Shown here one piece after another: positions 5,267 to 59,091 of a stretch of DNA of 64,000 nucleotides. Position 1 is the stretch's first letter. Each line of letters opens with the position of its first letter. A program made the translations under genes and the position numbers. The notes below the pieces were generated by a model, which searched no databases, was not told the origin of the DNA, and saw nothing but the letters and a program-made list of their open reading frames with translations. Origin of the DNA: a virus (lineage: Duplodnaviria > Heunggongvirae > Uroviricota > Caudoviricetes); the IMG/VR virus record IMGVR_UViG_3300042401_002002. One strand, given 5' to 3'.

Positions 5267-5301
5267 ATAAACTAACAACACAAAGTATTAAACAAAACAA
5301 T

Positions 5302-25150: not shown

Positions 25151-25182
25151 AAAACCTCTCCTAATATTTAAGAGAGGTTTTT
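25151..25182. terminator. bidirectional terminator, AAACCTC-family hairpin
   Basis: AAAACCTCTC-CTAATATTTAA-GAGAGGTTTT. Confidence 0.8.
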
Positions 25183-25188
25183 TCATTC

Positions 25189-26164: not shown

Positions 26165-27550
26165 ATGAAAAAATTACTAACAACGCTATTAATATTATCT
26201 TATTTAACTGTTTCTGCGCAGATTAAAAAAGTTTATTACAATACTCACTCGGACACTACTATATTTAATGGTAAAATATATAGGGAAGATGTTTTTAATC
26301 CAAACAAAACTGTAACTATTAATAACATAAATTATAACTACAGTTTTTTACATTTATATAAAGATACCAAAGGTGCATTAAGAAGTTATGGTGATTTTGA
26401 AGCTAATCGTTGCGAATCAACTGACACAACTTTGTTTTATTATATTAGCAAAAACAGTTTATACAAAGTAAATGACAAGAAAATACAGAAGTTAAAATTC
26501 AATGATGACAACCCACAATTAATTGATGAAATTTGCTTTCTAAGAAAGAATTTTGGTATAGCAAGGTCAAACTACCGACTATATGTTTACGATGGTTCTG
26601 ATACGCTTAAATTCAAATCTAAACTACTAAACTACGCTTTGCCATATAAAGGTGAAGAAAATAAATTTGTTTATTATGATAGTATTTTAGGTTTATTTAA
26701 TGAAAACTTAACACAAGTTATTAATAGAGAAAAATATACAGAAACAGGTTATTATGTACCAAGAGAATCTGTACAAGATTTTCTTAACTATATAAAATGT
26801 AACAACATTAATAATTCGTGTTTAGATACTAAATATGTAAGATATGATTACCCAACATTTAACCAAGAATATACATTTTATTACGACAAACGTGAGTTAT
26901 ACCACTATACTAGCAATTTACTAGAACAATATTTAGATAATCGTTCAGATGAATATTTAAAAGAAATAAGTAAAACACCAGATAGTTTAGTTATTGATAA
27001 TATTATTATGACTGATTTGTTATTAAAAGTTGCTTTACAATCAAAAATAAATTTAGATGTTAAATTATTAACGTATTCAATGTTTTTATTAAATGATAGT
27101 TTAATGATAACAGGTTATAGCCATAATAATGAATATCAATTAGGTTTGTATAACTTAAAAAATAATTCATTCATTAAATTCACACCACCTACTTGCAAGT
27201 TTATTACCAAATATTATGATGAGGATGGTTTTAGAAATATTAAAACCGAAACAGTTCCATTAACACCACATTTAATTTCATATCATTACAATGAGAATGA
27301 AAATAGTGTTTTATGCAGCGGTAATGATGGTTATATATTTAATATTGACTTAAACACATTTAAAATAAATAACATAACTGATTATGTTATTAAAGAAAAT
27401 ATTCACACATCTAAAAATGATAAATTTAAAGAAGTTGAAATGGTCTACTTAAAGGAAATAAAAGATGGAGTTTATACTGAGATACCTTGGTTAAACTATA
27501 TTAAGAAAAACTTCTTAGTTCAAAAATTTTACAATAATGATAATAGATAA
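26165..27550 (+). CDS. exported protein with SPI signal peptide
   Basis: MKKLLTTLLILSYLTVSA|QIKK; TTTG-N19-TAAATTTG promoter at 26105-26135; stop codon overlaps attC-like box. Confidence 0.7.
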   Translation: MKKLLTTLLILSYLTVSAQIKKVYYNTHSDTTIFNGKIYREDVFNPNKTVTINNINYNYSFLHLYKDTKGALRSYGDFEANRCESTDTTLFYYISKNSLYKVNDKKIQKLKFNDDNPQLIDEICFLRKNFGIARSNYRLYVYDGSDTLKFKSKLLNYALPYKGEENKFVYYDSILGLFNENLTQVINREKYTETGYYVPRESVQDFLNYIKCNNINNSCLDTKYVRYDYPTFNQEYTFYYDKRELYHYTSNLLEQYLDNRSDEYLKEISKTPDSLVIDNIIMTDLLLKVALQSKINLDVKLLTYSMFLLNDSLMITGYSHNNEYQLGLYNLKNNSFIKFTPPTCKFITKYYDEDGFRNIKTETVPLTPHLISYHYNENENSVLCSGNDGYIFNIDLNTFKINNITDYVIKENIHTSKNDKFKEVEMVYLKEIKDGVYTEIPWLNYIKKNFLVQKFYNNDNR

Positions 27551-27680
27551 CTAACAGAATATTTGCTAAAGTGGGTTTTTATCCTTACCTTTGTTTTCAA
27601 TCTAAAATTCTACTAAAACCAAAATTATGAACCTTATTCAATCTTTAATAACCCACCTTCGCAAATATTATATGTTGTGT
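27549..27680 (+). repeat. attC-like site A, copy 1
   Basis: R'' AACTAAC (27549-55), arms AATATTTGCTAAAGTGGGTT / AACCCACCTTCGCAAATATT, R' GTTGTGT (27674-80); near-identical to 58057-58189. Confidence 0.72.
27562..27593 (+). promoter_or_regulatory. Bacteroidota-type promoter embedded in attC-like site A
   Basis: TTTG-N20-TACCTTTG. Confidence 0.72.
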
Positions 27681-27956
27681 GTTAGTTTAATAAGACCGCA
27701 ACAACACGACACAGACTTGCAAGAGAATGAAAAAAATGGTAAGTTTGAGAAAAATAATAAGACTATGACAGATGTTGAAGTAAATAATAAAAGGTATCTT
27801 TCATCAAGTAAGATATCTGAAACCGAAATTAACTCTATTAAAAATAGAGCGCAAGAATCATACCAAGCACACCATAACAAGGTAAATCAATTTACCAAAA
27901 TGACACCTGACGAAAGATTAAAAATGGTTTTAAATAATCGCAATGTTTCAAAATGA
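27627..27956 (+). CDS. hypothetical: attC-encoded leader fused to cassette cargo
   Basis: Starts inside hairpin A; first ~43 aa homologous to N-terminus of 58136..58651, remainder unrelated. Confidence 0.6.
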   Translation: MNLIQSLITHLRKYYMLCVSLIRPQQHDTDLQENEKNGKFEKNNKTMTDVEVNNKRYLSSSKISETEINSIKNRAQESYQAHHNKVNQFTKMTPDERLKMVLNNRNVSK

Positions 27957-28484
27957 ATATATTATAGAATACAATATTAATAACTACGGTATTGGTGTAA
28001 TCACTTATGATATCAGTTACATTAATCCATTATGGAAAATAATAATTTTTAAATTTAACTATTTAACGTACTATAATAATTCTATGTTATTAGAGAGTTA
28101 CTTTACTTTAGAAGATGTAAACAAAAATGACAATTTTAGTATGTACAGCAAAAACGATAAAATTATATTATGGAAAATTATTTTTAGTATTAAAAACTAT
28201 TATTTTAACAAACACAAACCAGATATTGTTGAACACTTTATTGATGGTAATTTTTCAAAAAGATTAAAATTATATAAATGTTATTTAAATCCGACACATT
28301 ATTATTACCAAGACGAACAACATTTAAATATATTTTATTTAAAACTTTAACAAAACCAACACACAACATGGGTTTGGTAAAAGCAGGGCTGACGTGAATA
28401 ACCAAGTTTCAACTTCTATCAAACTTAAGTTGTTAAACCCAACAGATGTAATTCTAAACCCTGCCTTCACCAAGCCCTTTGACG
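27675..28484 (+). mobile_element. putative integron-like gene cassette 1 (810 bp)
   Basis: Between G|TT crossover points of sites A and B; 5' end TTGTGT complements its own R'' ACACAAC. Confidence 0.62.
27943..28350 (+). CDS. hypothetical cargo protein
   Basis: 135 aa, overlaps upstream ORF, ends 10 nt before site B. Confidence 0.6.
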   Translation: MFQNEYIIEYNINNYGIGVITYDISYINPLWKIIIFKFNYLTYYNNSMLLESYFTLEDVNKNDNFSMYSKNDKIILWKIIFSIKNYYFNKHKPDIVEHFIDGNFSKRLKLYKCYLNPTHYYYQDEQHLNIFYLKL

Positions 28485-28490
28485 TTAGTT
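28361..28490 (+). repeat. attC-like site B, copy 1
   Basis: R'' ACACAAC, arms GGGTTTGGTAAAAGCAGGG / CCCTGCCTTCACCAAGCCC, R' GTTAGTT (28484-90); near-identical to 58904-59032. Confidence 0.75.
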
Positions 28491-28514
28491 ATCATTATAC
28501 AAACATATAATAAC

Positions 28515-29734: not shown

Positions 29735-31462
29735 ATGCTTTCTCTTAATTTACCTATTATACATAACAGTGATACTAATTTTGTCGAAGACAAAATGAAT
29801 CAACACGCTTATGCTTTTAGGTATATGTTTAGAACATTAGATGAATCCGGTAATCGTCAATACGATGATAATATTAAAAATAAATTTAAATTAAATGATA
29901 CTGAATATAGTTCACTTGAAACGGTAGTAAAAACTTTCTTTAAACAGTGTGAAACAAACAATAAAAAGACACAAAAACGTATTAATAATAAGTTAGATGA
30001 AATTGAAGAACTTAAAACCAAACAACAAGACCCTAAAAAGTTTCTAACTAAAAAAGAAAAACGTTCACTTCATAAATTACAAGAACAAGTTGTTTATTTA
30101 AAAGGTGTTCTTAAAAACAAACCTGTTTTTGGTGGTAGAAAGAACCTACAACATTTAACACATTTACATAATCAGTACAATACTTTAGTTAATAATCTAT
30201 CTGTTACAACTGATGAAACTGAAATAATATTACTTGAAAATGAATTAGTCGAACAGTTTGATAAAATTGAAAAACAAAAGAACAAATATGTTACACAGAG
30301 ATTAAGGTCTTTTTATTTGTTGGGCGAAGCCAATCAAAAAGGTAACAGGTTCTTTGACTTTATAAAACTAAATGAAGGTTTGTTGGTTTACAAACCCAAA
30401 CAAGGTACTAAAGTCAACTTAACTGTTAAGGTTTGCAAGAATGAACTTAAACTTGTTAACAAGTTGATTGAGTTATCTCAAACTAAAAACATTAGTTTGT
30501 CTGTTTATTTATCAAACAAAAGTGTTTCAATTGCTTACGATGATGATATTGTTAACGGTTGGACACTTGATGAAACTGAAAAGAAACAAAAGATTAAAGA
30601 AATAAAAGAAACGTATGTTGATAAAGAGTTACAAACAACACTTATAAAAGCTGTTTACAGTGAACACCATAGAAAAGTTGAGCAATTAAAACTAGAAGGT
30701 AAAATTGAAGGACGTTGCGTAGCAATTGATATGAATCCATCTTATATTGGAGTTGCTATCTTAGAACGTGATTATGAGAATGAAGATACAGAAACAGGTA
30801 AACATGCTGTAAAAGTAATACATAAGTTCTGTTATTCTTTAAAGTATTTTATACAAAAGCTTCCTAAGGAAGCAACAGAAGAGGAAAGAGAATACTTACG
30901 TAACAAACAGAAACATGAGATTAAAGAATTAAATCATCATTTGTTTAATGTAGCTAATCATTATAAATGTTCAAGTTTTGTAATGGAAGACTTAAATTTT
31001 AATGAGTCAAAAGAAACATTAAAGAAAGGTAAAGAAGCAAACAGACAAACCAAAAATGTATGGTACAGAGGTCTGTTTACACAGATGATAATGAAGTTAA
31101 CTTCAAAATATGGTATCAAACTTATAGAAGTTGAACCAAGTTATTCTTCATTTATTGGAAATATAATGTACAAGAACTTTGACCCTATCAATTCAGCTAT
31201 TGAGATAGGAAGAAGAGGATTGTATAAGTTTATAAAAAATTGTGCAGGTTTACCACAGATTACCGAAGGTATCTTGAACACCGTGGCTGAAATTCTTTTA
31301 AAGAATGGAGAGGATGTTTCAAAGATGAACAAAATGAGTAAAGTGACGTGGAAAAACTTGTTTAACCTCTTGAAAAAATACAGATGGAGAGGTTCATCGG
31401 ACTTGGTAACAAGTCGATGCAGGATGAGTACTAAAAAGAGTAGAGTTAAGATATTAAGCTGA
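29735..31462 (+). CDS. tnpB: large TnpB-like RNA-guided nuclease (IS200/IS605-related), no transposase adjacent
   Basis: RuvC-I AIDMNPSYIG, RuvC-II FVMEDLNF, EVEPSYSSFIG, RuvC-III DPINSAIEIGRRG. Confidence 0.82.
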   Translation: MLSLNLPIIHNSDTNFVEDKMNQHAYAFRYMFRTLDESGNRQYDDNIKNKFKLNDTEYSSLETVVKTFFKQCETNNKKTQKRINNKLDEIEELKTKQQDPKKFLTKKEKRSLHKLQEQVVYLKGVLKNKPVFGGRKNLQHLTHLHNQYNTLVNNLSVTTDETEIILLENELVEQFDKIEKQKNKYVTQRLRSFYLLGEANQKGNRFFDFIKLNEGLLVYKPKQGTKVNLTVKVCKNELKLVNKLIELSQTKNISLSVYLSNKSVSIAYDDDIVNGWTLDETEKKQKIKEIKETYVDKELQTTLIKAVYSEHHRKVEQLKLEGKIEGRCVAIDMNPSYIGVAILERDYENEDTETGKHAVKVIHKFCYSLKYFIQKLPKEATEEEREYLRNKQKHEIKELNHHLFNVANHYKCSSFVMEDLNFNESKETLKKGKEANRQTKNVWYRGLFTQMIMKLTSKYGIKLIEVEPSYSSFIGNIMYKNFDPINSAIEIGRRGLYKFIKNCAGLPQITEGILNTVAEILLKNGEDVSKMNKMSKVTWKNLFNLLKKYRWRGSSDLVTSRCRMSTKKSRVKILS

Positions 31463-31505
31463 AGAGTTTAATAAAATTCTATTGTTTTTATTACTATATC
31501 TATCT

Positions 31506-31996
31506 GATGACAATCAAATTTTTATAGGTGATAACATGATTAAAGCTGGACATGAATTTATTGAATTAATGCACAGTCGCGGTGCCGTACTTTTAGATAC
31601 GGAAATGGTTTTGGGTTGTCCACATTTAGGTTATACAGGACAACCAGATAAGGTTTGGTTATTTAATAAAAACGGTGAATTGGGTATCATTATCAGCGAT
31701 TACAAAAGTAATAAACCAAAAAACTTTGAATCACATTGGTACACTATTCCTATGTTAAAACCTTTTGAACAATACGATGACACAGCATTAAGTCATTACT
31801 ATTTACAATTACCTTTTTATGTAAGATTGTTATTACAAATGTTAAAAGGTCAAAGTATGAAAATATATCTTTCTTCGGTGGTATCGTCCTTTTACTTAAA
31901 GAAGATGCAACATACAAGGAATATAGAATTCCAAAAGATATTATAACCAAAGTATTTAGTTTAGATATTAAAAATATTCTACAAAACAACATTTAA
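31506..31996 (+). pseudogene. 5'-truncated, frameshifted second PD-(D/E)XK nuclease
   Basis: DTEMVLG...GYTGQPDK...ISDYKSN...HYYLQL; 1-nt frameshift at 31850/31851 continues as SKYENISFFGGIVLLLKED...QNNI*; N-terminal part absent. Confidence 0.7.
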
Positions 31997-32048
31997 GTTT
32001 TAAACTATTTATAAAAAACTTAATAAAGAATTTTAACTTTAAATTATA

Positions 32049-32228
32049 ATGAATAATGACAAATTAAAAGCGTTTTTAAACAATGGTTCAAAAAACGCAC
32101 CAATTATTTCACCTGATAATAAATTTGATAACGAGGAAATTATCGAATCAAGACAAGGTTTAATTGAAAGAGTTGACAGAACTCTAAAAACTAAAGACGG
32201 ACGTATTCTTTTAATGGAACAAAGATAA
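32049..32228 (+). CDS. small late protein (59 aa, not in ORF track)
   Basis: MNNDKLKAF...IERVDRTLKTKDGRILLMEQR*; ACTATTTA at 32004-32011. Confidence 0.7.
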   Translation: MNNDKLKAFLNNGSKNAPIISPDNKFDNEEIIESRQGLIERVDRTLKTKDGRILLMEQR

Positions 32229-32232
32229 TAAA

Positions 32233-33117
32233 ATGGCTAAGATTAGAGAAATATTAATCGAAAACAAAATAACTGAAACTAATTATAGAGTACAGGTAGG
32301 TAAAAAATTTCTTGCATTAAATTCAAAAGAAGAATTAGATAATGTAATGAATGAATCTTTAAATACTGAAAATACTCTAACAGTTAAAAGTTATAACGTT
32401 GATGGTTTTGTTAAAGAAACAAAATACATTAATGAAAATAAGTCATGGGTTGAATTTAAACCAACATTAAATGAAAGTTATGTTGAAAAATTCAAAAGAT
32501 TAGTTGAATATGAAATAAAACCACATGTTTCTTCTTCAACAATTATTGACGAGGATGATGAAGATGTTGTTGAAATACCAGATTCAAAACCTGCTATTGA
32601 ACCATTTGAGGACACTGAAGCTATTAATCAAATCCAAAATACTGAAGCACCTGTTGATATAGTTACAGAATTAACACCTGAACAAAAAGCCAAAGAATTA
32701 GAAGATTTAGCAAAAGTTGATGATATTACACGTATCAAAGAAATTCAGGACCAACAAACACTCGAATTAAACAACATGCTACAAACTGTTGATTTAATCA
32801 AAACTGAAATGTTAAATTTAACCAACAGAACAGCCGACATTCCAGCAATGAAAGCTAATATTGATATTGTTAATAAAAAAGTTAGAGAATTAACACCTTT
32901 AACAACTGAAGAACAATTAACAAAAAATGCTATCATGTCAGGTGGTATGAAAATTGAAGATGTTTGGAATAAATACATTTTAAACAATGAAGTTCAAAGA
33001 GCTGTATTTGATAGTGTTGACGAACAAAAACCTGAACTTGAAAAATATAGTGAAGATGTTCGTAACATTAAAAAATACAACGATAATGATGTTAAAAAAT
33101 CATTTGGTTTAAACTAA
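32233..33117 (+). CDS. putative internal head/prohead protein
   Basis: Acidic, many (L/I/V)xE motifs, late operon. Confidence 0.55.
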   Translation: MAKIREILIENKITETNYRVQVGKKFLALNSKEELDNVMNESLNTENTLTVKSYNVDGFVKETKYINENKSWVEFKPTLNESYVEKFKRLVEYEIKPHVSSSTIIDEDDEDVVEIPDSKPAIEPFEDTEAINQIQNTEAPVDIVTELTPEQKAKELEDLAKVDDITRIKEIQDQQTLELNNMLQTVDLIKTEMLNLTNRTADIPAMKANIDIVNKKVRELTPLTTEEQLTKNAIMSGGMKIEDVWNKYILNNEVQRAVFDSVDEQKPELEKYSEDVRNIKKYNDNDVKKSFGLN

Positions 33118-33142
33118 TAAAATAAAACTCTTTTAAATTAAA

Positions 33143-33931
33143 ATGGAAAATAAAAAACTTATTTTAGAACAAAAAATTACCAAACTAGCTGTTGAACAGT
33201 TAATGGAAAAATACAATGCTGGTCAAATTGATGAAGCTGGATTAGCATCAGCTATTGGTGGTTTAAAAAATTTGGCAGGTAAAGTTGCAAATAAATTTGT
33301 TGACAAAGCTAAAGAAGTTAAACAAGGTTTATCGGATGTTGGAACTGAAATTAAAGATACAGCAAAATATATTGGTAATGATATTAAAACATCAGCGCAA
33401 AATGCCACTAAAGGTGTTGCTGACTCAGTAGGTAATATTAAACAAAATATAGGTAACAATATTGATAAAGCTAAAACAGCTTACAAACAAGGAGCCTTAC
33501 CAGTTCAAAGAAAACAAACTGAACAAGCTTTTGAAACATTTGCTAAAGCACTTAATACTTATAACCAAGAAGCAAGAAAATATAGTGCTGAACCACTTTC
33601 TATTCAAGGTATGTTAAATATATACCGTAGAACTTATCCTAATTTGTTTAAAGAAAGCGAAGAACCTATTTGCAAGACTGAAGTTATAAAAGAATCAGAA
33701 GACAAAGAATCTAAAGACGAAAAATGGATTCAAAATGCTGACATTAAAAAAGGTAAACTTAAAAAAAGATTAGGTTTAGCTGATGATGAAAAACTTACAA
33801 TTAGTAGAGTTAATTCAGAATTAAAACATCTTAAAGCTAAATATAAAGAAGGTGAAAAAATGAGTAAAGAAGATTTAACTTTTGAAAAAGAATTAAATTT
33901 AGCTAAAACTTTATTGAGTTCTAAAAAATAA
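33143..33931 (+). CDS. putative internal head protein
   Basis: LILE, VIKES motifs; amphipathic repeats; C-terminal KWIQ..IKKG.L. Confidence 0.55.
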   Translation: MENKKLILEQKITKLAVEQLMEKYNAGQIDEAGLASAIGGLKNLAGKVANKFVDKAKEVKQGLSDVGTEIKDTAKYIGNDIKTSAQNATKGVADSVGNIKQNIGNNIDKAKTAYKQGALPVQRKQTEQAFETFAKALNTYNQEARKYSAEPLSIQGMLNIYRRTYPNLFKESEEPICKTEVIKESEDKESKDEKWIQNADIKKGKLKKRLGLADDEKLTISRVNSELKHLKAKYKEGEKMSKEDLTFEKELNLAKTLLSSKK

Positions 33932-33954
33932 TATTCTAACATTTACAGTAAATA

Positions 33955-33989
33955 AAAAACCTCTTCCTATTAATTTAAGAAGAGGTTTT
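33955..33989. terminator. bidirectional terminator, AAACCTC-family hairpin
   Basis: AAAACCTCTTC...GAAGAGGTTTT. Confidence 0.78.
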
Positions 33990-34053
33990 ATTTTTTGTTC
34001 ACTTTATTTTTATGTTCACAAAAAGATGAACAATCTTATTTTAATGAACAGTA

Positions 34054-34500
34054 TTAAACAGGATTTTCATCATTACCACCTGTATTGTTGACAATACTTG
34101 ACCATCTACCTTTCCACTCAGCAAAGAATTCTAACACTTTAGAGAAAACAAAAACTAAATCAGTTGTTAAACCCAAAGCAGTTTGTCCATTTGCCAAAGC
34201 TATACTTGGTGAAGGTTCATTTAAATTAAAAATACAAACGTATTCTAAATTATTCAATACAATAGAACATTTAAATACTACATTCAAACCATCCATTGTG
34301 TGACTTTTTCCTGGATAAACTTTAACAATAGCCTTACCTTCAAGTTTATCTTCTAAAGCATCAACGTCTCCCTTAGCATCATCAGCAAATCTAGCTGGTA
34401 ATTCAGCTTCATGTAAATTATACCTTTGTTTATTTTCATTGATATAACGTCTAATTTTAGACATTGTGTTATGTATGTCATCTGATTCTGAGTACCTCAT
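34054..34500 (-). CDS. hypothetical late protein
   Basis: 148 aa. Confidence 0.6.
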   Translation of the reverse strand: MRYSESDDIHNTMSKIRRYINENKQRYNLHEAELPARFADDAKGDVDALEDKLEGKAIVKVYPGKSHTMDGLNVVFKCSIVLNNLEYVCIFNLNEPSPSIALANGQTALGLTTDLVFVFSKVLEFFAEWKGRWSSIVNNTGGNDENPV

Positions 34501-34504
34501 AATA

Positions 34505-35272
34505 TTAATCTATAGTTTGAACAAATCTAGTTCCGTATTTAATACCATCAAAACCTTTTTTAACCGCTTCTTGGTAAATTCTTTTTAAAACATAATTCTC
34601 AAATGTTAATACAGCTCTAGCAGCTTCCATTTTAAAATTATCATAATCAGGGAACCATTTCTTAGCTAAATTTTCAACCGGATTATCACCACACTCCTTA
34701 TCATCAATCTCTAATAAGTTTTCAAACTCAAACTGATAAGCTTTATCATAAGAAGGTTTTTGTTTATCAATCAACAAATTACCTATTTTACTATTAGGTG
34801 TAAATGGTTTATTAGAATATAATGTTAATGTTTTACCATTCTTAGTTTCTTCTTCAGAAGATTCTTGAATATCATCTTCTTGTTTTTCAGTAAAATTATT
34901 ATCTAAATTATTTTCCCAATTATATTTATCCTGTATTTTATTTAAAATTCTAGACGCATCATGTTTATCAGCATAAATTTTAACACAAACAACTTTAGCA
35001 ACTTCAGGTGTTGTTTGAAATGCAAATAATCTATCATGTCCATCCAACACTTCATTATCTTTAGAGATAAATATAGGATTAACAGGTTTTAAATTTAAAA
35101 TACTATCCTTAACACCTCTAACGTTTTCTACATTAACATTATCCGTTAAAGGTTTTAATTCATTAGGGTTAAAATTATCAATTTTATAACCTACTTGACT
35201 ATTATCTAAATTTTTATATATATAATCGTAGTCAGATGTTATTTGTGGTAACCAACTATTTTTAACTGCCAT
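34505..35272 (-). CDS. ParB/sulfiredoxin-like domain protein
   Basis: PIFISKDNEVLDGHDR; likely start MAVKNSW at 35272. Confidence 0.65.
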   Translation of the reverse strand: MAVKNSWLPQITSDYDYIYKNLDNSQVGYKIDNFNPNELKPLTDNVNVENVRGVKDSILNLKPVNPIFISKDNEVLDGHDRLFAFQTTPEVAKVVCVKIYADKHDASRILNKIQDKYNWENNLDNNFTEKQEDDIQESSEEETKNGKTLTLYSNKPFTPNSKIGNLLIDKQKPSYDKAYQFEFENLLEIDDKECGDNPVENLAKKWFPDYDNFKMEAARAVLTFENYVLKRIYQEAVKKGFDGIKYGTRFVQTID

Positions 35273-35279
35273 TTTATGT

Positions 35280-35840
35280 TTATTTTTTGTTTTTAAGTTC
35301 AATTAAAGCGTCCTTAATATAAGTTTTAATATTTTCCTTAATAATTTTATTAACTATCTTTTCAATTCTTTTTTCTGATAAACCCTCATGTATAATAAAA
35401 TCATAAACTGTTTCTTTTATGTATTCTTTTATTTCAGAATCAGACATAGAAGAATTATTTGTTTTTTGCTCTTTTAACAGATTATTATAAACAGGTTCCT
35501 CTATACTTTTAGATATCTCTTTTCTATATGTTTCATATTTAGGTGCAACATCATGTGCCTTAGCTTCAGCTTCAGCCAACGCACCTTTCTTACCACTCAA
35601 TAATGCTGTTATAGCATCCATTGGAACAGGTGCAGCTACTTCATTAAATGTAGCAACTTTAACATTACCATCACCTATAACCTTCTCTATACTCTCTAAC
35701 TGCAAAGCTACATCTTTTTCAGATTTAACTTTATTTTTAACATCAATAGCACCATCAACAGCCACCGCATTTTTAAATAAATTAGCAGCTTCAGGTGTTA
35801 TTTGTCCATTCAAAAAAGCAGATAACGCTTGTTTATTCAT
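35280..35840 (-). CDS. hypothetical late protein
   Basis: 186 aa, late motif upstream. Confidence 0.6.
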   Translation of the reverse strand: MNKQALSAFLNGQITPEAANLFKNAVAVDGAIDVKNKVKSEKDVALQLESIEKVIGDGNVKVATFNEVAAPVPMDAITALLSGKKGALAEAEAKAHDVAPKYETYRKEISKSIEEPVYNNLLKEQKTNNSSMSDSEIKEYIKETVYDFIIHEGLSEKRIEKIVNKIIKENIKTYIKDALIELKNKK

Positions 35841-35880
35841 GATAAAAAATATTTATTTAATTTAAATAGTAAATAAAAAC

Positions 35881-35914
35881 AAAAAACCTCTCCTAATATT
35901 TAAGAGAGGTTTTT
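35881..35914. terminator. AAACCTC-family hairpin terminator
   Basis: AAAACCTCTC-CTAATATTTAA-GAGAGGTTTT. Confidence 0.78.
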
Positions 35915-35915
35915 A

Positions 35916-36170
35916 TTAGTTTTCTGATTCAGTTTTCTTAACAGTTGTATGTCCAAAAAATTTGGCAACTAAAACCAAACCTAATAAAACTTGTTTAACC
36001 CAAGCAGGTACTAAACCTTCCGGTAATGCATTTACATATTCCAAAGTCTCAACAGCACCAGCGGTTAAACCTAAAATAAACGGAATCTTGGTGGTAAACC
36101 ATTTACCAAACTCAGAACTTTCAGCTTGAAACCTTTCAACTAAAGTCATTTCACTTATTTTCTTTTTCAT
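35916..36170 (-). CDS. small membrane protein, holin candidate
   Basis: 84 aa, two hydrophobic segments, charged termini, late motif upstream. Confidence 0.45.
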   Translation of the reverse strand: MKKKISEMTLVERFQAESSEFGKWFTTKIPFILGLTAGAVETLEYVNALPEGLVPAWVKQVLLGLVLVAKFFGHTTVKKTESEN

Positions 36171-36202
36171 AAATATATTTTTAGTAAATAGATAAAAAAT
36201 AA

Positions 36203-36234
36203 TTTGTTTAAATGAAACTTTATTTGTAGATTTG
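36203..36234 (+). promoter_or_regulatory. Bacteroidota-type promoter of early island
   Basis: TTTG-N20-TAGATTTG. Confidence 0.75.
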
Positions 36235-36259
36235 TGCTTGTAAATAGAATGTATAAATT

Positions 36260-36481
36260 ATGTTAATAAATAATAAAGAAGAGTTTGAAGAATTTTATCC
36301 ATATTCAAAAGACCAAATAACAAAATATCCATCTGAATATCCTTGTTTATGTTCATGGTCTCATGAAGGTGGTGGTTTAATGGGTGAATACAAACAAGTA
36401 TGGGTTATTTACTTTCCTAAAAATGTAACAGTAGAAGAAGCTTTTCTATTAGGTATAAAAAAACAATGGTTAGAATTATGA
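36260..36481 (+). CDS. small hypothetical protein
   Basis: First gene of early island. Confidence 0.65.
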   Translation: MLINNKEEFEEFYPYSKDQITKYPSEYPCLCSWSHEGGGLMGEYKQVWVIYFPKNVTVEEAFLLGIKKQWLEL

Positions 36482-36651
36482 AAAATTCAGAACAAGTAGA
36501 ACAATATGCTAATGAATTATTAATGAAAATGTATAGTAATGATAAAGCATTATTAGCAATAAAAGAAATATTGAAATTTTCCGATAATAAACATAAAGAA
36601 TCTCTATTAAAGGTTCAAGAGTTACTTATTAAATGGACTAAACAAAGGTAA
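36478..36651 (+). CDS. small hypothetical protein
   Basis: ATGA overlap with upstream stop. Confidence 0.55.
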   Translation: MKNSEQVEQYANELLMKMYSNDKALLAIKEILKFSDNKHKESLLKVQELLIKWTKQR

Positions 36652-36653
36652 CT

Positions 36654-36827
36654 ATGGAACATTACTATGTGTTTTACAAACATGAAGATGATAATATGTT
36701 TGATAGAACTTGCGGAACAAAAGAATCTGCTGAAGAACGTATTAATATCTTAAAAAATAAATATAATTATAGTGATGCTGAATATTTCTTAAATGAAATT
36801 CCTAAAGATTATATTTATTTTTATTAA
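36654..36827 (+). CDS. small hypothetical protein (57 aa, not in track)
   Basis: MEHYYVFYKHEDDNMFDRTCGTKESAEERI...; tight packing. Confidence 0.6.
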   Translation: MEHYYVFYKHEDDNMFDRTCGTKESAEERINILKNKYNYSDAEYFLNEIPKDYIYFY

Positions 36828-36842
36828 TCAAAACTATTATTT

Positions 36843-37004
36843 ATGAATAAACTAGATGATAAAACAAAGAAACTTATGATTGAGTTTGCTAGACACTGTA
36901 TGATAGAACTCGTATCACAAACTCCGCCTGGTGGTACATTTTCTGAAATTTCTTCACAAAATCTCAGTAAAATTACAAAAATACTTAATGAAAAATTTAA
37001 ATAA
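36843..37004 (+). CDS. small hypothetical protein (53 aa, not in track)
   Basis: MNKLDDKTKKLMIEFARHC...; tight packing. Confidence 0.55.
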   Translation: MNKLDDKTKKLMIEFARHCMIELVSQTPPGGTFSEISSQNLSKITKILNEKFK

Positions 37005-37006
37005 TT

Positions 37007-37210
37007 ATGTGGCGAATAAAATGCAGTAATGGTTTGTATGTAAATAAAACAACGTATGGTACTTGGATAAGTTATTCTAATAAAGGTAAAATATTTACAA
37101 ATGAAAAAATAGCACTAAAGAATCTATCTTTATGTCAAGAATTTGCGAATAAAGATGAAAAACATAACACGCTAACTTACACAATTGAACAAACCTCTCC
37201 TAATAACTAA
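37007..37210 (+). CDS. small hypothetical protein
   Basis: 67 aa; runs into terminator hairpin. Confidence 0.6.
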   Translation: MWRIKCSNGLYVNKTTYGTWISYSNKGKIFTNEKIALKNLSLCQEFANKDEKHNTLTYTIEQTSPNN

Positions 37211-37220
37211 GAGAGGTTTT
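37191..37220. terminator. bidirectional terminator, AAACCTC-family hairpin
   Basis: AAACCTCTC-CTAATAACTAA-GAGAGGTTT. Confidence 0.8.
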
Positions 37221-37226
37221 TATATT

Positions 37227-39050
37227 TTATCTAGATAACTGAGTTCTTTTCTTTAAGTTAAATACAATATCTGAATTAGGGTATTTAATTTCAAACATCC
37301 CATCCATTGGTGAGTATATTGCGTTATCAATCAATTCAATTTCCCTTGTGTCATTATTAACATAAGGTTGCTCAATTTCATTCAATGAATACTGTCCACC
37401 TACTTTGTTATAAACTTTATAATTAATAACATCAATTACACCAACAACAGCATTAAGTTGTTTTAATATAGAACCAATAAAAACATCATTATTCATTTTG
37501 TTGTTATTAATATTAAAGAAATCACTAACAACTTTTTGACAAGCTAATACTATTTGGTTACTTGGAACATTATCTTCTATAAACAAATCAAAAGCAAAAC
37601 CTATATTAATTATCTTACCGTTTCTAACTTCTACATAATCATTTACACTTCTAAATTGTGATAAATATTGCGCAATATTTTCTTCCAAAACAGACGTTGA
37701 TGTATTATCAAGTTTACCTGCACTATCTATACCTAAAATAGAAACAACAACTTTATTATTTTCTTTAAAAACAGCATTTCTAAATGGTACACCGAATTCG
37801 CTTGGCATCTTAAATAATTGAGCAGAATAATCTGACAAAGTAATACATCTATTTTGTGCTGAAAAATTATACGGGATTATATTTCTAACCTCTTCAGTAC
37901 TTGGAGCATCAGCACCACCTAAAGCTGGAATAATATTTGTAACCTTTAATGTTCTTAACACTTTTTGATTAACCTCATCCAAAGGACCATTTAAAGAACT
38001 AAACACAGCACCAACTGATGTTAAAACATTTGAACCTAAATTTGAACCAATACCACCACCTGTTCTATACTTAACCCAAATCTGACTATTAATCGGAGGA
38101 ATTTCACCAAAAGCTGTGTTATTTAAATAACCATCTAAACCATTATAAACACCGCCATTAGTCATTGCTGTATTAAATAAATCATAATCACCATTACCAC
38201 CACCAAATGTTATTTTACATAAACCATTATGTGTAAATTCAGTAATAAATTTTTTAGTTACCTTATCCCAAACACCCGTTTTTAATGAACTATTATTATT
38301 TGAAGCTTTAAAAATTCTATCTTGTAACAAATAATCAACCTCATACCATAACTTAGTTGAATCATAAAAATCGGCATTAACAGGGTCCGGATTAGTTAAA
38401 CCTGGTAATACAATTATTTGGTCAACTTGTATAATATCTGTTTCAGGTAAATTAAAAGATAAAAATGGTTTATAATTACTTGATGTTACTGAACGTGAAA
38501 ATATCCTAGTTATACCATTATAAACAACCTCACTTTTTGTTATATCGTAACTTAAAACTTTTTCATCAGCAGAAATATTAGGTTTTATAGTTCTATTAGG
38601 GAAACCCAAAGCACTTGTATCACTATCAAAATCAACATCACTTCTTAACTCAAAAACTTGTCCACCACCAACAACTTGTGTACCTGCTTTCAATATAGGT
38701 AAATATTTTGAATCATAAGTATCACCCAAAACAGGAACTGTAAATGTAAATGAAACTATTGTAACAGAACCTCTTTTGTTAGGAACCTTTAAACCCATAT
38801 TCTTTGCAATGCTAAAGATAGACCTTCTTTCTTGTGCAAACTCTAATTGTGTTTCCTGAAAACGTCTGTTTATTTGATAATTTAAACTATCACCCAAACC
38901 AGCAATCAACTCAATAAATAAAACACCTAAATCGTTCTCTGTAAAATCAGACAAACTATCAGGATAATACTGTTTAACGTAATTTATTAAATCCTCTCTA
39001 ATAGATAAGAAATCTCTAGAACTATAATTAAGTTGTTTGGATGTAGCCAT
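37227..39050 (-). CDS. baseplate wedge protein (T4 gp6/baseplate J-like)
   Basis: LNYSSRDF.SIR..L, QET...AQERRS...IA..MG, GGAD..S.EE.R, AQNR.IT..DY. Confidence 0.88.
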   Translation of the reverse strand: MATSKQLNYSSRDFLSIREDLINYVKQYYPDSLSDFTENDLGVLFIELIAGLGDSLNYQINRRFQETQLEFAQERRSIFSIAKNMGLKVPNKRGSVTIVSFTFTVPVLGDTYDSKYLPILKAGTQVVGGGQVFELRSDVDFDSDTSALGFPNRTIKPNISADEKVLSYDITKSEVVYNGITRIFSRSVTSSNYKPFLSFNLPETDIIQVDQIIVLPGLTNPDPVNADFYDSTKLWYEVDYLLQDRIFKASNNNSSLKTGVWDKVTKKFITEFTHNGLCKITFGGGNGDYDLFNTAMTNGGVYNGLDGYLNNTAFGEIPPINSQIWVKYRTGGGIGSNLGSNVLTSVGAVFSSLNGPLDEVNQKVLRTLKVTNIIPALGGADAPSTEEVRNIIPYNFSAQNRCITLSDYSAQLFKMPSEFGVPFRNAVFKENNKVVVSILGIDSAGKLDNTSTSVLEENIAQYLSQFRSVNDYVEVRNGKIINIGFAFDLFIEDNVPSNQIVLACQKVVSDFFNINNNKMNNDVFIGSILKQLNAVVGVIDVINYKVYNKVGGQYSLNEIEQPYVNNDTREIELIDNAIYSPMDGMFEIKYPNSDIVFNLKKRTQLSR

Positions 39051-39129
39051 TAATGTAAAAATCTTTTTTTATAAATAGCTTGGAACTAAATAAATTATTT
39101 TGTATGTTTGTGTACTTAAATGTTATGTT

Positions 39130-39267
39130 ATGGAAGAAAAACTAGAAAAATTATCAATAGCTGAGTTAAAAATCGTAATTGATGAATCAGAAAAAATGCG
39201 AAAACCTAAACTAAAACAGGTTGCTGAAAAAGTTTTAAAAAATAAAATTAACGAACTGGGTAAATGA
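39130..39267 (+). CDS. small hypothetical protein (45 aa, not in track)
   Basis: MEEKLEKLSIAELK...; TTGG-N19-TATGTTTG at 39080-39110; ATGA overlap with next gene. Confidence 0.6.
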   Translation: MEEKLEKLSIAELKIVIDESEKMRKPKLKQVAEKVLKNKINELGK

Positions 39268-48874: not shown

Positions 48875-48908
48875 AAAAACCTCTCTTATTAATTTAAGGA
48901 GGTTTTTT
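48875..48908. terminator. AAACCTC-family hairpin
   Basis: AAAAACCTC...GAGGTTTTT. Confidence 0.65.
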
Positions 48909-49224
48909 ATTTTATAACCTCTTTGTAATCTTTACTGAAACGTAATAAATAATACCTGAAACGTAAAATATTTTCTATTTAAAATAAAATAGGGAGAGAT
49001 GAGGATGGTTTTTATTATTATCGCACTGGTTCTTACTTCTGTTGATATTACATTGCTTAACAGAAGAAATAAGACAAAAACTAAATATTCTGTTGTTTGT
49101 ACATTAAACAAACAAACAGAATCTGAACTAGAACATTTTTATTTATAAAATATTTTTAAACAGCTTGTAATTAATTTTGCAAGCTGTTTTCTTTATTAAC
49201 TATTTATTTGAAAAATACACAACT

Positions 49225-50145: not shown

Positions 50146-50994
50146 ATGAAAAAATGTGCTAAATGTAAAATAGAAAAACCTGAAACTGAATTCGGTAATA
50201 ATAAATCTTCAAAAGATGGATTACATTCTTATTGTAAAGAATGTGAAAATAAATGTTCTCGTGATAAATATTATAATAATCGTGAAAAAAAACTTAAACA
50301 ACTAAAAGATAAATATCAAAATGACATTGAATTTAAAAATAAAAGAAATTCAATAATAAACACAGATGAATTTAAAAATAAAAGAAATGAAAATGCTAGA
50401 AATAAACGTAAAAATAATGAAGAATATCGCGAAAAAATAAATAAACAAGAACGTGATAAATACAATAATAAAACTGAATTACGTGAAAAAAAACTAAAGA
50501 AAATAAGAGACAAAACTGCTAATGATAGTGAATTTCGTGAAAAAGAAAGCAAGCGAAAAAAAGAATACCACGCAACACCCAAAGGTAAAAAGGTATTAAA
50601 ACGTGCATATTCAAAATACATAAATAAACCTGAAAATAAAATGATTCGTACTATTCGTGATTTTATCCATAGAACATTAAAATATAAAAATGAAACATAT
50701 ACTAACAAAGATTTAGGTTATACTAAACATGAGCTAAAAGAACACCTAGAAAAACAATTTGATGAAAATATGTCATGGGACAATTATGGTATTTGGCATG
50801 TTGACCATATTATACCTATTACAAAGTTTGATAAAACAACACCGATATATGTTATTAATCACCTAGAAAATTTACAACCTTTAGATGGTACTGAAAATAT
50901 GAGTAAGAATAACCGCATCGAATTACTACCTGAACGAACAATCGGTGAATATGTTTTATTTTTAAATGAAAATAATAAGTATCAATTAAAATAA
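50146..50994 (+). CDS. HNH homing endonuclease, one zinc-finger repeat
   Basis: KKCAKCKIEK...DGLHSYCKEC; WHVDHIIP...NHLENLQPL...N. Confidence 0.85.
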   Translation: MKKCAKCKIEKPETEFGNNKSSKDGLHSYCKECENKCSRDKYYNNREKKLKQLKDKYQNDIEFKNKRNSIINTDEFKNKRNENARNKRKNNEEYREKINKQERDKYNNKTELREKKLKKIRDKTANDSEFREKESKRKKEYHATPKGKKVLKRAYSKYINKPENKMIRTIRDFIHRTLKYKNETYTNKDLGYTKHELKEHLEKQFDENMSWDNYGIWHVDHIIPITKFDKTTPIYVINHLENLQPLDGTENMSKNNRIELLPERTIGEYVLFLNENNKYQLK

Positions 50995-52230: not shown

Positions 52231-53664
52231 ATGGAAATAAACAATACTAAAAAATGTACCAAGTGTGGTGTTGAAAAAGAGTTGAGCGAGTTTGCTAAAA
52301 ATAAAAATACAAAAGATGGTGTAAAACCTGCTTGTAAAACTTGTGTAAATAAACAAACATCTGAAAAATATTTTAATGATTCAATTTTACGTGAAAAACG
52401 AAGTCAAGAAGCTAAAGAACGTTATAAAGAAAAACTTAAGGTTGAGAAAATAACTATTGATTTTTCAGCTTCAAAACCTTGTATTAAATGTGGTGTTGAA
52501 AAAACATTAGATAAATACACCAAAAATATATCTTCTATAGATGGTGTTGAAAATGTTTGTAAAGATTGTAAAAATGAACATAAAAGAAACAAGGTTAAAA
52601 ATGATTCAGAATATCGTGAAAAATTAAATAAACGAGGTAGAGATAGATATTTACAAAAAGCAAATGAAAACAAACAACAAGACCTTAATTTAATATTAAA
52701 GGTTTGTAGTAAATGTGGTATTGAAAAAGATGGTACCTGTTTTAATAAACACAAAAGTAGACAAGACGGATTAACAGGTGTTTGTAAAGAATGTAGAAAT
52801 AAATATTTACGTGATAAAGGTAAAGAAAACCCTGAATATCGTTATATGATAAATCAAAAAAGACAGGATAAAATTATTTTTAAAAAATATACATTTAAAG
52901 GTGTTGATAATACAATATTGAAACCTTGTAGTAAATGTGGTATTGAAAAAACTTTAGATAAATTTTCCAAAGAAATATTATGTACTGATGGTACTAAAAA
53001 TATTTGTAATGAATGTAAAAATGAACGAAACAAGGGAATACTAAATAATAATCCTGAACGTAGAATTAAATACAATACACAAAGACGTAATAAAATTAAC
53101 AACAATATTGAATATCGTAACAAAATCCGTCAAAAACAAAGGGAATTTTTAAAAAATAACCCAGAAATTAAAGAAAGGTATAAACAAACCCAAAAAGAAA
53201 AGTTTAACGACCCTGAGTATCGTGTTATCTATAATAATAGACAACGTAAATATCACTCATCACCTAGTAGTAAAAAAGCTAGAAAAATAAGAGAATCTAG
53301 ACCCGAATACAAAATAGCCAAAGCTATGAGACATTCAGTTAAAAGAGTGTTAAATTATAGTGATGGTAATTTTATAAATGAAAAATTAGGTTATACCAAA
53401 CATGAATTAATGGAACATTTAGAAAAACAGTTTGATGAAAATATGTCATGGAACAATTACGGTACTTGGCATATTGACCATATCATACCTATAACTAAGT
53501 TTGACAAAACAACACCTTCTTACATAATCAATCATCTTGAAAATTTACAACCTTTAGATGGTACAGAAAATAAAAGTAAAAATAATCGTATTGAATTAAT
53601 TCCTGAAATTTCAATTGGTGAATATGTATTATTTTTAAATGAATCAGGTAAATATCAACTATAA
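52231..53664 (+). CDS. HNH homing endonuclease, four zinc-finger repeats
   Basis: 4x KxCxKCG(V/I)EK...DG....CxxC; WHIDHIIP...NHLENLQPL. Confidence 0.87.
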   Translation: MEINNTKKCTKCGVEKELSEFAKNKNTKDGVKPACKTCVNKQTSEKYFNDSILREKRSQEAKERYKEKLKVEKITIDFSASKPCIKCGVEKTLDKYTKNISSIDGVENVCKDCKNEHKRNKVKNDSEYREKLNKRGRDRYLQKANENKQQDLNLILKVCSKCGIEKDGTCFNKHKSRQDGLTGVCKECRNKYLRDKGKENPEYRYMINQKRQDKIIFKKYTFKGVDNTILKPCSKCGIEKTLDKFSKEILCTDGTKNICNECKNERNKGILNNNPERRIKYNTQRRNKINNNIEYRNKIRQKQREFLKNNPEIKERYKQTQKEKFNDPEYRVIYNNRQRKYHSSPSSKKARKIRESRPEYKIAKAMRHSVKRVLNYSDGNFINEKLGYTKHELMEHLEKQFDENMSWNNYGTWHIDHIIPITKFDKTTPSYIINHLENLQPLDGTENKSKNNRIELIPEISIGEYVLFLNESGKYQL

Positions 53665-53670
53665 AACAGA

Positions 53671-53702
53671 AAAACCTCTCCTAATTTCTTAAGAGAGGTT
53701 TT
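53671..53702. terminator. bidirectional terminator, AAACCTC-family hairpin
   Basis: AAAACCTCTC-CTAATTTCTTAA-GAGAGGTTTT. Confidence 0.8.
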
Positions 53703-53722
53703 CTTTTTACATTTTAAGTTAA

Positions 53723-58042: not shown

Positions 58043-58056
58043 TAGTTAAAAACAAT

Positions 58057-58189
58057 AACTAACAGAATATTTGCTAAAGTGGGTTTTTATTCCTACATTT
58101 GTTTCTCAATCTAAAATTCTACTAAAAACCAAGTTATGAACTTTATACAATCTTTAATAACCCACCTTCGCAAATATTTAATGTTGTGT
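58057..58189 (+). repeat. attC-like site A, copy 2
   Basis: R'' AACTAAC, same arms as copy 1, R' GTTGTGT at 58183-89. Confidence 0.72.
58070..58101 (+). promoter_or_regulatory. Bacteroidota-type promoter embedded in site A copy 2
   Basis: TTTG-N20-TACATTTG. Confidence 0.75.
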
Positions 58190-58651
58190 GTTAGTTTGGT
58201 AAGACCGAAACGTAAAACAGAGTTGCAAGAGAATGAAAAAATTGGTAAGTTTGAGAATAACTTATATGAATTTATTATGATAAACAACCCTGAAGCTAAA
58301 AATAAAATAGAATCATTTGAAACACACAAATTATTTTCAAAATTTTTAAAAGAAAAAATAATTTTAGATGATATAAAAGAAATAACTGAATTTATATCAG
58401 AAAGTAAGACTATTATAAATATTGAATTACTTTTTTCAGAAGTTCATATAAAATATGAAGGTTTTATACATGAATCAGGTTTAATCAAAAACAAATATAT
58501 AGTAAAAGATAAAAATTTCAATGTGTTATATGAATTTAAAATAATTAAAAATTACCCAGGACTTTACTGTGAAATTAACAACACAAATCAAGAGTTTAAT
58601 GACGTAATGTTCATTAATATTATAATGAAAATAATTAATAATTTAAAATAA
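58136..58651 (+). CDS. hypothetical: attC-encoded leader fused to a different cargo
   Basis: MNFIQSLITHLRKYLMLCVSLVRP... leader, then ~130 unrelated aa. Confidence 0.62.
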   Translation: MNFIQSLITHLRKYLMLCVSLVRPKRKTELQENEKIGKFENNLYEFIMINNPEAKNKIESFETHKLFSKFLKEKIILDDIKEITEFISESKTIINIELLFSEVHIKYEGFIHESGLIKNKYIVKDKNFNVLYEFKIIKNYPGLYCEINNTNQEFNDVMFINIIMKIINNLK

Positions 58652-59026
58652 ATTCTGTTGAAAGGTTTGGTTGTTAAAGATTACCCTAGTTTCTGTCAAA
58701 ACTAGGGTTGTCTGCTCTACTTTCTTATTTCAAAAAATGTAATTTTATTCACATTAATATTAGTAGTTTTGTTAAAGTACATGGCAACGACAAATGCCAG
58801 AAACAATAGTTTGTAAAAATTTGACATATAAAAATTATTTAGACAGCAATCTACAAACTTTGACAATAACAACCAAACCCAAGACAGAAATAACAAAACC
58901 AACACACAACATGGGTTTGGTAAAAGCAGGGCTGACGTGAATAACCGAGTTTCTACTTCTACCAAACTTAAGTTGTCAAACAAAGTGATGTAATTTTAAA
59001 CCCTGCCTTCACCAAGCCCTTTGACG
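58184..59026 (+). mobile_element. putative integron-like gene cassette 2 (843 bp)
   Basis: Same boundaries as cassette 1, different interior. Confidence 0.62.
58683..58708 (+). terminator. hairpin after cassette 2 cargo
   Basis: ACCCTAGTTT...AAACTAGGGT. Confidence 0.6.
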
Positions 59027-59032
59027 TTAGTT
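58904..59032 (+). repeat. attC-like site B, copy 2
   Basis: R'' ACACAAC 58904-10, R' GTTAGTT 59026-32; arms identical to copy 1. Confidence 0.75.
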
Positions 59033-59091
59033 ATCATTTTACAAAACATAAACCTTATCAAGCTATTTAATTTAAACAACCTTAAATTATT

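Follow-up and report, generated by a model that had tools for sequence, protein, structure and literature searches.

Positions 58054-59047 of the window, the 64,000-nt stretch of DNA that was analysed (bases 93194-157193 of a 195-kb IMG/VR virus record with an estimated completeness of 61%), probably constitute one unit of an integron-like gene-cassette system that belongs to a giant phage of the Bacteroidota type. Three properties of the system were shown by comparison: replacement that was bounded by short cores, integron-like swapping of tails, and clustering of the sites beside a recombinase gene. In the mechanism that we propose, a 271-aa Xer-like tyrosine recombinase would bind the folded strand of a site and exchange DNA at its AAC/GTT core, the enzyme, the catalysis and the folding of the single strand all being inferred. 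A whole cassette, comprising a gene and its site, would be inserted, removed or replaced behind a docking site (site A), and the promoter and start codon of A would be read across the crossover into the incoming cassette. Since these predicted signals span the crossover, the incoming cassette would be transcribed, and its translation would probably begin with a short N-terminal leader.

Layout of the locus 2 unit

The unit under study, at locus 2, was found between a 478-aa gene and a 298-aa gene, the latter conserved in 74 related contigs, with a tail-sheath gene (PF17482) 1.6 kb away (Table 1). It was bracketed by a 5-nt direct repeat, AAAAC (58049-58053 and 59043-59047). The first 16 codons of its 171-aa ORF were located within site A, and 47 codons preceded Met48, after which the cargo followed; this in-frame internal methionine codon, at 58277, is where database gene callers begin the gene (P0001, 124 aa). 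No Pfam or PHROG family matched the cargo and an Atlas search gave no lead. The G+C content of the cargo was 23.6-24.1%, compared to 26.6% for the genome.

The original prediction had placed here, at 58054-59050, a second copy of a cassette frame, with hairpins A and B near-identical to those of locus 1, a shared stretch past the crossover, unrelated interiors, one ORF followed by a hairpin terminator, AT-rich and phage-like cargos, and a position between late structural-type genes. Its coordinates agreed almost perfectly with those of the block that is missing in close relatives (58054-59047). The likeness of the hairpins and the unrelated interiors were upheld by blastn and word positions, the shared stretch was upheld at about 75 nt, and the base composition and the structural neighbourhood were as described. 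The ORF and the hairpin were also present; the terminator function of the latter is inferred.

Table 1. Coordinates of the features of locus 2, of the other units and of the recombinase gene (window positions unless marked as genome; a slash within G/TT marks the crossover; promoter and terminator functions are inferred).
Feature	Coordinates	Strand	Description
Whole inserted unit, locus 2	58054-59047		994 bp; site A, cassette, site B and 20-nt tail
Site A	58048-58194	-	Imperfect palindrome; arms 58066-58083 and 58161-78; 77-nt loop; cores AAC 58061-63 and G/TT 58183/58184
Promoter motif, Bacteroidota type	58070-58101	+	TTTG-N20-TACATTTG; 5' arm and loop of site A; activity inferred
Cargo ORF, locus 2	58136-58651	+	171 aa; sole ORF of the unit
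Exchangeable cassette, locus 2	58184-59026	+	843 bp, G/TT core to G/TT core; in order, R' tail TTGTGTGTTAGTTT, promoter-like module, ORF, hairpin, spacer, R'' head AACCAACACACAAC, site B body
Second promoter-like motif	58223-58253	+	TTG-N20-TAAGTTTG; in the ~75 nt common with locus 1 past the crossover; role inferred
Terminator-like hairpin	58684-58707	+	CCCTAGTT...AACTAGGG; 3' of the cargo ORF; read from the sequence, function inferred
Site B	58895-59037	-	The cassette's own site; arms 58913-58931 and 59001-59019; 69-nt loop; cores AAC 58908-10 and G/TT 59026/59027
Locus 1, sister unit	27551-28514		A 27546-27685 (-), B 28352-28495 (-); two ORFs unrelated to locus 2
Locus 3	genome 51259-50250	-	Same site A; different site B with compensating stem changes
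Locus 4	genome 168215-169205		G+C-richer sites; frameshifted N6/N4 DNA-methyltransferase gene
Xer-like tyrosine recombinase	genome 169633-170448		271 aa; 18 kb downstream of locus 2; PF00589, E = 2e-37

Blastn of loci 1 and 2 against GenBank phages gave no match, as did an exact-word scan of IMG/VR with the site A arm, and in the window Rfam at gathering thresholds detected a single tRNA and nothing else, with no intron or known RNA family. A group I or II intron at locus 2 was ruled out; the unit is intergenic and is missing in relatives whose flanking genes are unchanged. An IS200/IS605 element or a PATE, which would combine subterminal hairpins with a Y1/HUH transposase, was also ruled out, there being no match to PF01797 in the genome.

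Other repeated features were observed in the window. Near-identical terminator-like hairpins (AAACCTCTCC...GGAGAGGTTTTT) followed genes on both strands (25152-25188, 35884-35920, 37191-37227, 48877-48913 and 53672-53708). Four tandem 189-nt repeats, 63-70% identical, occupied 5298-6065, probably within a repetitive protein gene, and a 300-nt direct repeat (50677-50976 and 53350-53649; 2.7 kb apart, 80% identical) probably lies inside repetitive protein genes.

Four units in the phage genome

A scan of the whole record for hairpins (18-nt inverted arms with at least 15 of 18 positions paired, a loop of 40-130 nt, and flanking AAC...GTT) yielded exactly eight, which make up four units; the remaining candidates did not exceed the quality of hairpins from shuffled sequence. 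Exactly these eight sites were also recovered from the genome with R1, a covariance model built from an alignment (A1) of 57 array sites from other contigs.

Further copies of the frame were sought in the window with two query words, which occurred only at loci 1 and 2: AATATTTGCTAAAGTGGG at 27558 and 58066 and, on the minus strand, at 27652 and 58161 (0.18 chance matches expected), and CCCTGCCTTCACCAAGCCC at 28459 and 59001 and, on the minus strand, at 28370 and 58913 (0 expected). The other two units lie elsewhere in the genome. By blastn, identity was 88.5% over 209 nt for the 5' modules of loci 1 and 2 (27540-27747 and 58055-58260) and 93% over 161 nt for their 3' modules (28348-28507 and 58891-59050); the interiors showed no similarity. 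The proteins of the two loci had only their first 42-43 residues in common, a leader that was 77% identical.

At locus 3 the inner flank pair was GTTACCAAA and TTTGGTAAC, and the cargo in the phage under study consisted of 117-aa and 157-aa ORFs. Adjoining locus 3, a run of mini-genes of 44-47 codons (MKLK...) was observed at genome 51300-51700 (L087 2781-3189), with the same layout in the relative L137. Locus 4 was located approximately 430 bp upstream of the recombinase gene, and its methyltransferase cassette had a G+C content of 35%, compared to 26.6% for the genome. The methyltransferase gene was divided between ORFs of 133 aa and 141 aa, with an overlap close to an A7 run (genome 168286-169060; L086 2287-3061); a frameshift, a sequencing error or phase variation may be responsible.

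A 575-aa TnpB-related ORF (29735-31462, plus strand; TIGR01766, 32.8 bits, just above the cut-off) was found 1.2 kb from locus 1. In this region homology to one relative (L146) ended at 28741 and returned at 31505, and another (L149) kept the exonuclease gene, with no match past 29658; the TnpB-like gene is probably a separate insertion.

Empty sites and cassette replacement in relatives

The locus 2 unit was missing in three relatives (L140, L141 and L142), whose 478-aa protein was 98%, 82% and 77% identical, respectively, to that of the phage under study. In these empty sites the 478-aa and 298-aa genes were 53-54 bp apart with a single AAAAC word, and blastn homology ended at approximately 58051-58072 and returned at 59044-59063. 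No R1 sites were detected in 87 kb of the closest relatives. The comparison with these relatives showed that the locus 2 unit is an insertion. The locus 1 unit, which was bracketed by a direct repeat, ATAAC, was missing in five contigs of relatives (within L146 to L151; 63-89% amino acid identity), where the flanking genes were 1-4 bp apart. In more distant relatives of the locus 2 region (52-60% identity), other small ORFs without R1 sites were observed in the gap after the 478-aa homologue (L145 4540-4743 and L143 6573-7848), and this gap may be a general insertion hot spot.

At locus 3, two ENA contigs (L137 and L138) were 95-96% identical to the phage under study on both sides of the unit and retained site A. 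In place of the cargo they carried a gene for an HNH endonuclease of 286 aa, and their B site was of the type seen at loci 1 and 2. The breakpoints, ATGTT/ on the left and CGTTAGTTAC on the right, coincided with the two G/TT cores. The difference at locus 3 is a cassette replacement bounded by two cores.

Structure of the sites and pairing of their flanks

Sites A and B of locus 2 were scored on the minus strand with R1, which was built only from the arrays of other contigs, and gave 48.0 and 66.9 bits, respectively. The body and outer flanks of A recurred at loci 1 and 3 and in L137. The arm mismatches of B, at positions 4, 10 and 13, were those of the array consensus and included the conserved G.T at position 13. 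A reading of the spacer lengths in which B was inverted relative to A was ruled out; R1 placed both sites in one orientation, and its matches to the A and B sites of loci 1, 2 and 3 were all on the strand that is antisense to the cargo ORFs.

The flanks of the sites of locus 2 were complementary to each other. The tail after the G/TT core of A matched the head before the AAC core of B at 13 of 14 positions, ATG/TTGTGTGTTAGTT pairing with AACCAACACACAAC/AT, and the outer flank ATAACTAAC was complementary to GTTAGTTAT at 9/9 positions, ATAACTAAC pairing with G/TTAGTTAT. This is the trace that is expected from the insertion of one cassette into one site. In the arrays of other contigs, the 9 nt after the GTT of a site and the 9 nt that lead up to the AAC of the next site were complementary at a mean of 6.96 of 9 positions (n = 79, mode 8), compared to 3.33 of 9 for the two flanks of a single site and 3.43 of 9 for random pairs; the same rule held at loci 1, 2, 3 and 4. 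This complementarity of tail and head is the integron cassette rule, in which the R' tail belongs to the neighbouring cassette.

The part of the unit that moves was identified from what is conserved. Across loci 1, 2 and 3 the body and outer flanks of A were conserved, and the inner tails and site B varied together. For 18 pairs of array sites with arms at least 80% identical, the downstream 12-nt tail was conserved (at least 75% identical) in 6 and the upstream head in none, and HSP extension favoured the same direction (22 compared to 5). Site A was therefore assigned as the docking site, and the cargo together with B as the cassette. The alternative in which a site travels with its upstream ORF, the canonical layout in the array sense, was disfavoured by the conservation of tails and heads, by the HSP extension and by the replacement between locus 3 and L137.

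Several observations do not fit this reading well. Loci 1 and 2, and in part the HNH cassette, share their cassette ends around unrelated ORFs, and because loci 1 and 2 also share about 75 nt past the crossover, site-specific exchange at A and B alone is not sufficient to explain them. By analogy, the shared ends recall the uniformity of attC sites within chromosomal integrons; the exchange of the ORFs, or the formation of the cassettes, is left unexplained. The outer junctions (AAAAC and ATAAC) do not fit the polarity of the inner crossover, and how a whole unit enters is unresolved. A reading of the ends of loci 1 and 2 as circularly permuted is possible and no more than suggestive.

These shared ends also bear on a second explanation, in which the unit is a regulatory cassette like the PeSLs of T4-type phages and its modules are portable homology for general or illegitimate recombination, with no dedicated recombinase. 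In its favour are the roughly 75 nt past the core and the two ends that loci 1 and 2 share around unrelated ORFs, the promoter motifs within the conserved modules, and the documented PeSL-mediated shuffling in T4-type phages (PMC2839356, PMC4122927). Against it, the breakpoints fall exactly at 3-nt cores, and swapped complementary tails, stems of free sequence with compensatory changes and tight linkage to a recombinase are not expected from exchange that is driven by homology. We consider this explanation highly improbable.

Site arrays beside homologues of the recombinase

Homologues of the 271-aa recombinase with 50-66% identity were found in 30 IMG/VR contigs, including phage contigs of 288 kb and 362 kb, the latter of which also encodes the 298-aa structural gene, and in Flavobacterium, Bacteroidales and other Bacteroidota MAGs. 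In approximately 20 other phage contigs and Bacteroidota MAGs the homologue adjoined an array of up to about 20 sites. With R1, 104 sites (E≤0.001) were detected in 604 kb around the homologues, nearly all upstream of the recombinase gene and on the same strand, compared to none in 739 kb of control loci from related phages. Arrays of long-loop hairpins of this kind occupied the 10 kb upstream of the homologues, and a simple hairpin scan gave 61 in 425 kb, compared to 2 in the 739 kb of controls. The control loci came from distant relatives that were found via the 298-aa protein (about 45% identity); these relatives were of no use as a test for empty sites, because the upstream gene is not kept there.

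Each site of the family is an imperfect palindrome of approximately 130 nt (about 140 nt for A and B) that consists of TAAC-G, a stem of 17-19 bp of free sequence, a loop of 40-80 nt and TGTT(A). In alignment A1, AAC and TGTT were invariant (57/57), the adjoining T, G and A were almost invariant (consensus TAACG ... TGTTA), a G.T pair was present at arm position 13 in 55 of the 57 sites, and 16 of 17 stem pairs showed compensatory changes. The sites in A1 were chosen for complementarity and the paired fraction is partly circular; the invariant features and the genomic context lie outside this selection. The array sites had a one-sided bulge of 4-5 nt and a C.A mismatch at arm position 4, where attC has a symmetric unpaired central spacer and extrahelical bases; the two are analogous in being specific to one strand, with a different geometry. 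R1 was strongly strand-specific, the two strands of a single site scoring 111.7 and 14.1 bits. Each array site stands before its ORF, the start codon of which is often within the site. At nearly all loci the recombinase gene follows the array and has its orientation, and neither an attI nor a Pc was recognised.

The best family match of the 271-aa recombinase was to archaeal-type XerA (192 bits, cut-off 220), and it aligned end to end with XerA (4a8e). The integron-integrase model TIGR02249 matched in two pieces with 154 bits, compared to a cut-off of 265. In the alignment to VchIntIA (2a3v), residues 183-211 of the recombinase (29 aa) faced chain residues 181-257 (77 aa). The IntI-specific region of roughly 48 residues between patches II and III, which includes the I2 helix, was missing from the recombinase; this helix is held to let IntI recombine single-stranded sites (PMC7790495), and its absence counts against the proposed mechanism. 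Because the recombinase is without the IntI-specific insert, the unit is called integron-like here and not a canonical integron.

The first of the rival explanations is that these are ordinary host attC sites and cassettes (CALIN) that were moved by a canonical host IntI, the phage-encoded Xer-like enzyme being an unrelated integrase or resolvase. Orphan attC clusters, including methyltransferase cassettes, were reported in virulent phages by Qi et al. 2023 (PMC9892861). Among these is Polaribacter phage P12002L (NC_028924; L152), in which R1 found 7-9 sites between methyltransferase and Mom-like genes (29996-39253, minus strand; best 47.5 bits), so that the site family overlaps the attC calls of IntegronFinder. 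One P12002L site, not shown to be among the R1 matches, was recombined by IntI1 (PMC9892861), and no close homologue of the 271-aa recombinase was found in this phage, an observation that counts against our main reading. In addition, the cores resemble RYYYAAC and GTTRRRY. Against the rival, the arrays abut the Xer-like gene in approximately 20 independent contigs, five MAGs that contain arrays or recombinase homologues yielded no canonical IntI with a score above the family cut-off, the cargos are AT-rich ORFans that resemble the phage itself, and the sites have a one-sided bulge in place of the symmetric spacer of attC and stand upstream of their ORFs in the arrays. On balance we regard this rival as unlikely.

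The remaining claims of the original prediction can be assessed at this point. It had inferred a reusable, promoter-bearing frame that is refilled with new cargo, and this was upheld; site A was found at three places with three cargos, and a fourth, the HNH gene, was present in the 95%-identical relative. That the phage duplicated the frame is unproven, and related units could have been inserted independently at loci 1 and 2. Its proposal of host integron parts was right in kind, given the AAC and GTT cores, the swapped R-box tails and the arrays beside a tyrosine recombinase; a host origin was not shown. It requires correction in that the system has a phage-encoded Xer-like enzyme without the IntI-specific insert, and in that the sites, in array orientation, are antisense to the cargo. 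The prediction would have been refuted by the existence of only two copies with identical cargo in relatives, and this outcome was not met, since additional units, empty sites and different cargo were found.

Predicted expression signals in and behind site A

The TTTG-N20-TAnnTTTG motif, one example of which lies in site A (Table 1), occurred 13 times in the window, compared to 3.9 expected, and none of 100 shuffles reached 13. It was conserved in the A copies of loci 1 and 3. The second promoter-like motif was conserved at 27716-27747 in locus 1 and, at locus 2, was located 23 nt upstream of the internal methionine codon. The ATG at 58136 is in the loop of site A; in each of four cassettes, those of loci 1, 2 and 3 and the one with the HNH gene, its frame runs without a stop into that of the cargo. 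Sharing of an open frame by four cassettes was estimated to be unlikely by chance in DNA of 73% A+T. Promoter activity, translation of the leader and expression of the cassette are inferred from sequence, and which start codon is used is not settled.

A third explanation is that the hairpins function in RNA, for example as processing sites, insulators or terminators within an expression module that was duplicated, without a role in DNA mobility. It is supported by the folding of the A and B regions as RNA, which was better than that of shuffled sequence (z = -3.0 and -2.8, respectively), and by the start codon in an open loop. Against it, a transcript from the promoter that is predicted within A would be without the 5' arm of A, and it is therefore argued that the hairpin acts as DNA and not as an mRNA element. 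Furthermore, the sites are antisense to the cargo, Rfam gave no match, and the empty sites, the cassette replacement and the tail complementarity are facts at the level of DNA. This explanation is almost excluded.

Comparison with known systems

The phage units resemble integrons in their arrays of short genes, in imperfect-palindrome sites with AAC...GTT cores, in the G/TT crossover and in R' tails that pair with the next R''. The recombinase is Xer-related, the stems keep structure and not sequence, the mismatches are strand-specific and methyltransferase cassettes occur. Virulent phages also contain solitary two-site clusters, and R1 matches sites within the published CALIN region of P12002L (PMC9892861). 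Unlike integrons, the recombinase is small, is without the I2 helix and is encoded downstream of the array on the same strand, whereas canonical intI stands next to attI and Pc at the array head and is usually divergent. The sites of the phage system also differ in having a one-sided bulge and a long unstructured loop and in standing before the ORF, the docking site A would give a promoter and a leader, and the system is encoded by giant phages themselves. The sites meet the attC criterion (imperfect palindrome, R'' and R' cores, structure-conserving stem), as judged without the official IntegronFinder attC model. As judged by R1, locus 2 meets the definition of a CALIN (at least two attC sites close together, no integrase near), with two sites about 850 bp apart and the recombinase 18 kb away.

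PeSLs (Arbiol et al. 2010, PMC2839356; Comeau et al. 2014, PMC4122927) are similar in that phage ORFans are bracketed by promoter and stem-loop modules, that insertion, deletion and replacement distinguish close relatives, and that circular intermediates have been proposed. In contrast to the phage units, their promoter-terminator motifs are thought to recombine by homology, without a dedicated recombinase, AAC and GTT cores or swapped tails. The PeSL criterion, a T4-type early promoter fused to a terminator stem-loop on either side of the ORF, is not fulfilled; the promoter motif is a Bacteroidota-type one, the hairpins that bracket the cargo lack a T-run and have loops of 70 nt, and the terminator-like hairpin of locus 2 is inside the cassette.

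Xer-dependent modules, such as the pdif modules of Acinetobacter plasmids and IMEX, for example CTX phage, also combine a Xer enzyme with gene modules that are bounded by its sites. CTX phage integrates as a folded single strand, and the likeness to the phage unit is by analogy. The pdif and IMEX modules differ from the phage unit, which has arrays of hairpins of about 130 nt and no 11-6-11 dif-like sites. In the literature that was searched, there was no description of the linkage to a small recombinase without I2, of the array layout, of a promoter-bearing docking site or of direct evidence for gain or replacement.

Implications

The unit is, with good probability, a real, mobile and integron-like cassette unit; catalysis by the phage enzyme and folding of the single strand are inferred. 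The identity of the enzyme, like promoter activity and leader translation, rests on sequence without experimental evidence or read-level evidence of circles or excision. A bolder reading, which we would as readily doubt as accept, is that giant phages of Bacteroidota run an integron-like system of their own around a minimal Xer-like recombinase without the I2 helix, either an independent invention or a pre-integron relic. Scattered docking sites with promoter and leader would allow accessory genes to be plugged in anywhere, even in the tail module.

Integrons have been held to depend on the I2 helix of IntI and to be bacterial platforms, and orphan attC clusters were shown in phages only recently. 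The empty sites and the cassette replacement found in nature show that the units move, and P12002L may serve as a laboratory model for the site family. If the phage enzyme is the catalyst, the system would provide a direct test of how recombination of single-strand sites evolved, and the small recombinase and its site, with a built-in expression adaptor, would be a possible tool. It would also explain how giant phages acquire and shuffle ORFan genes.
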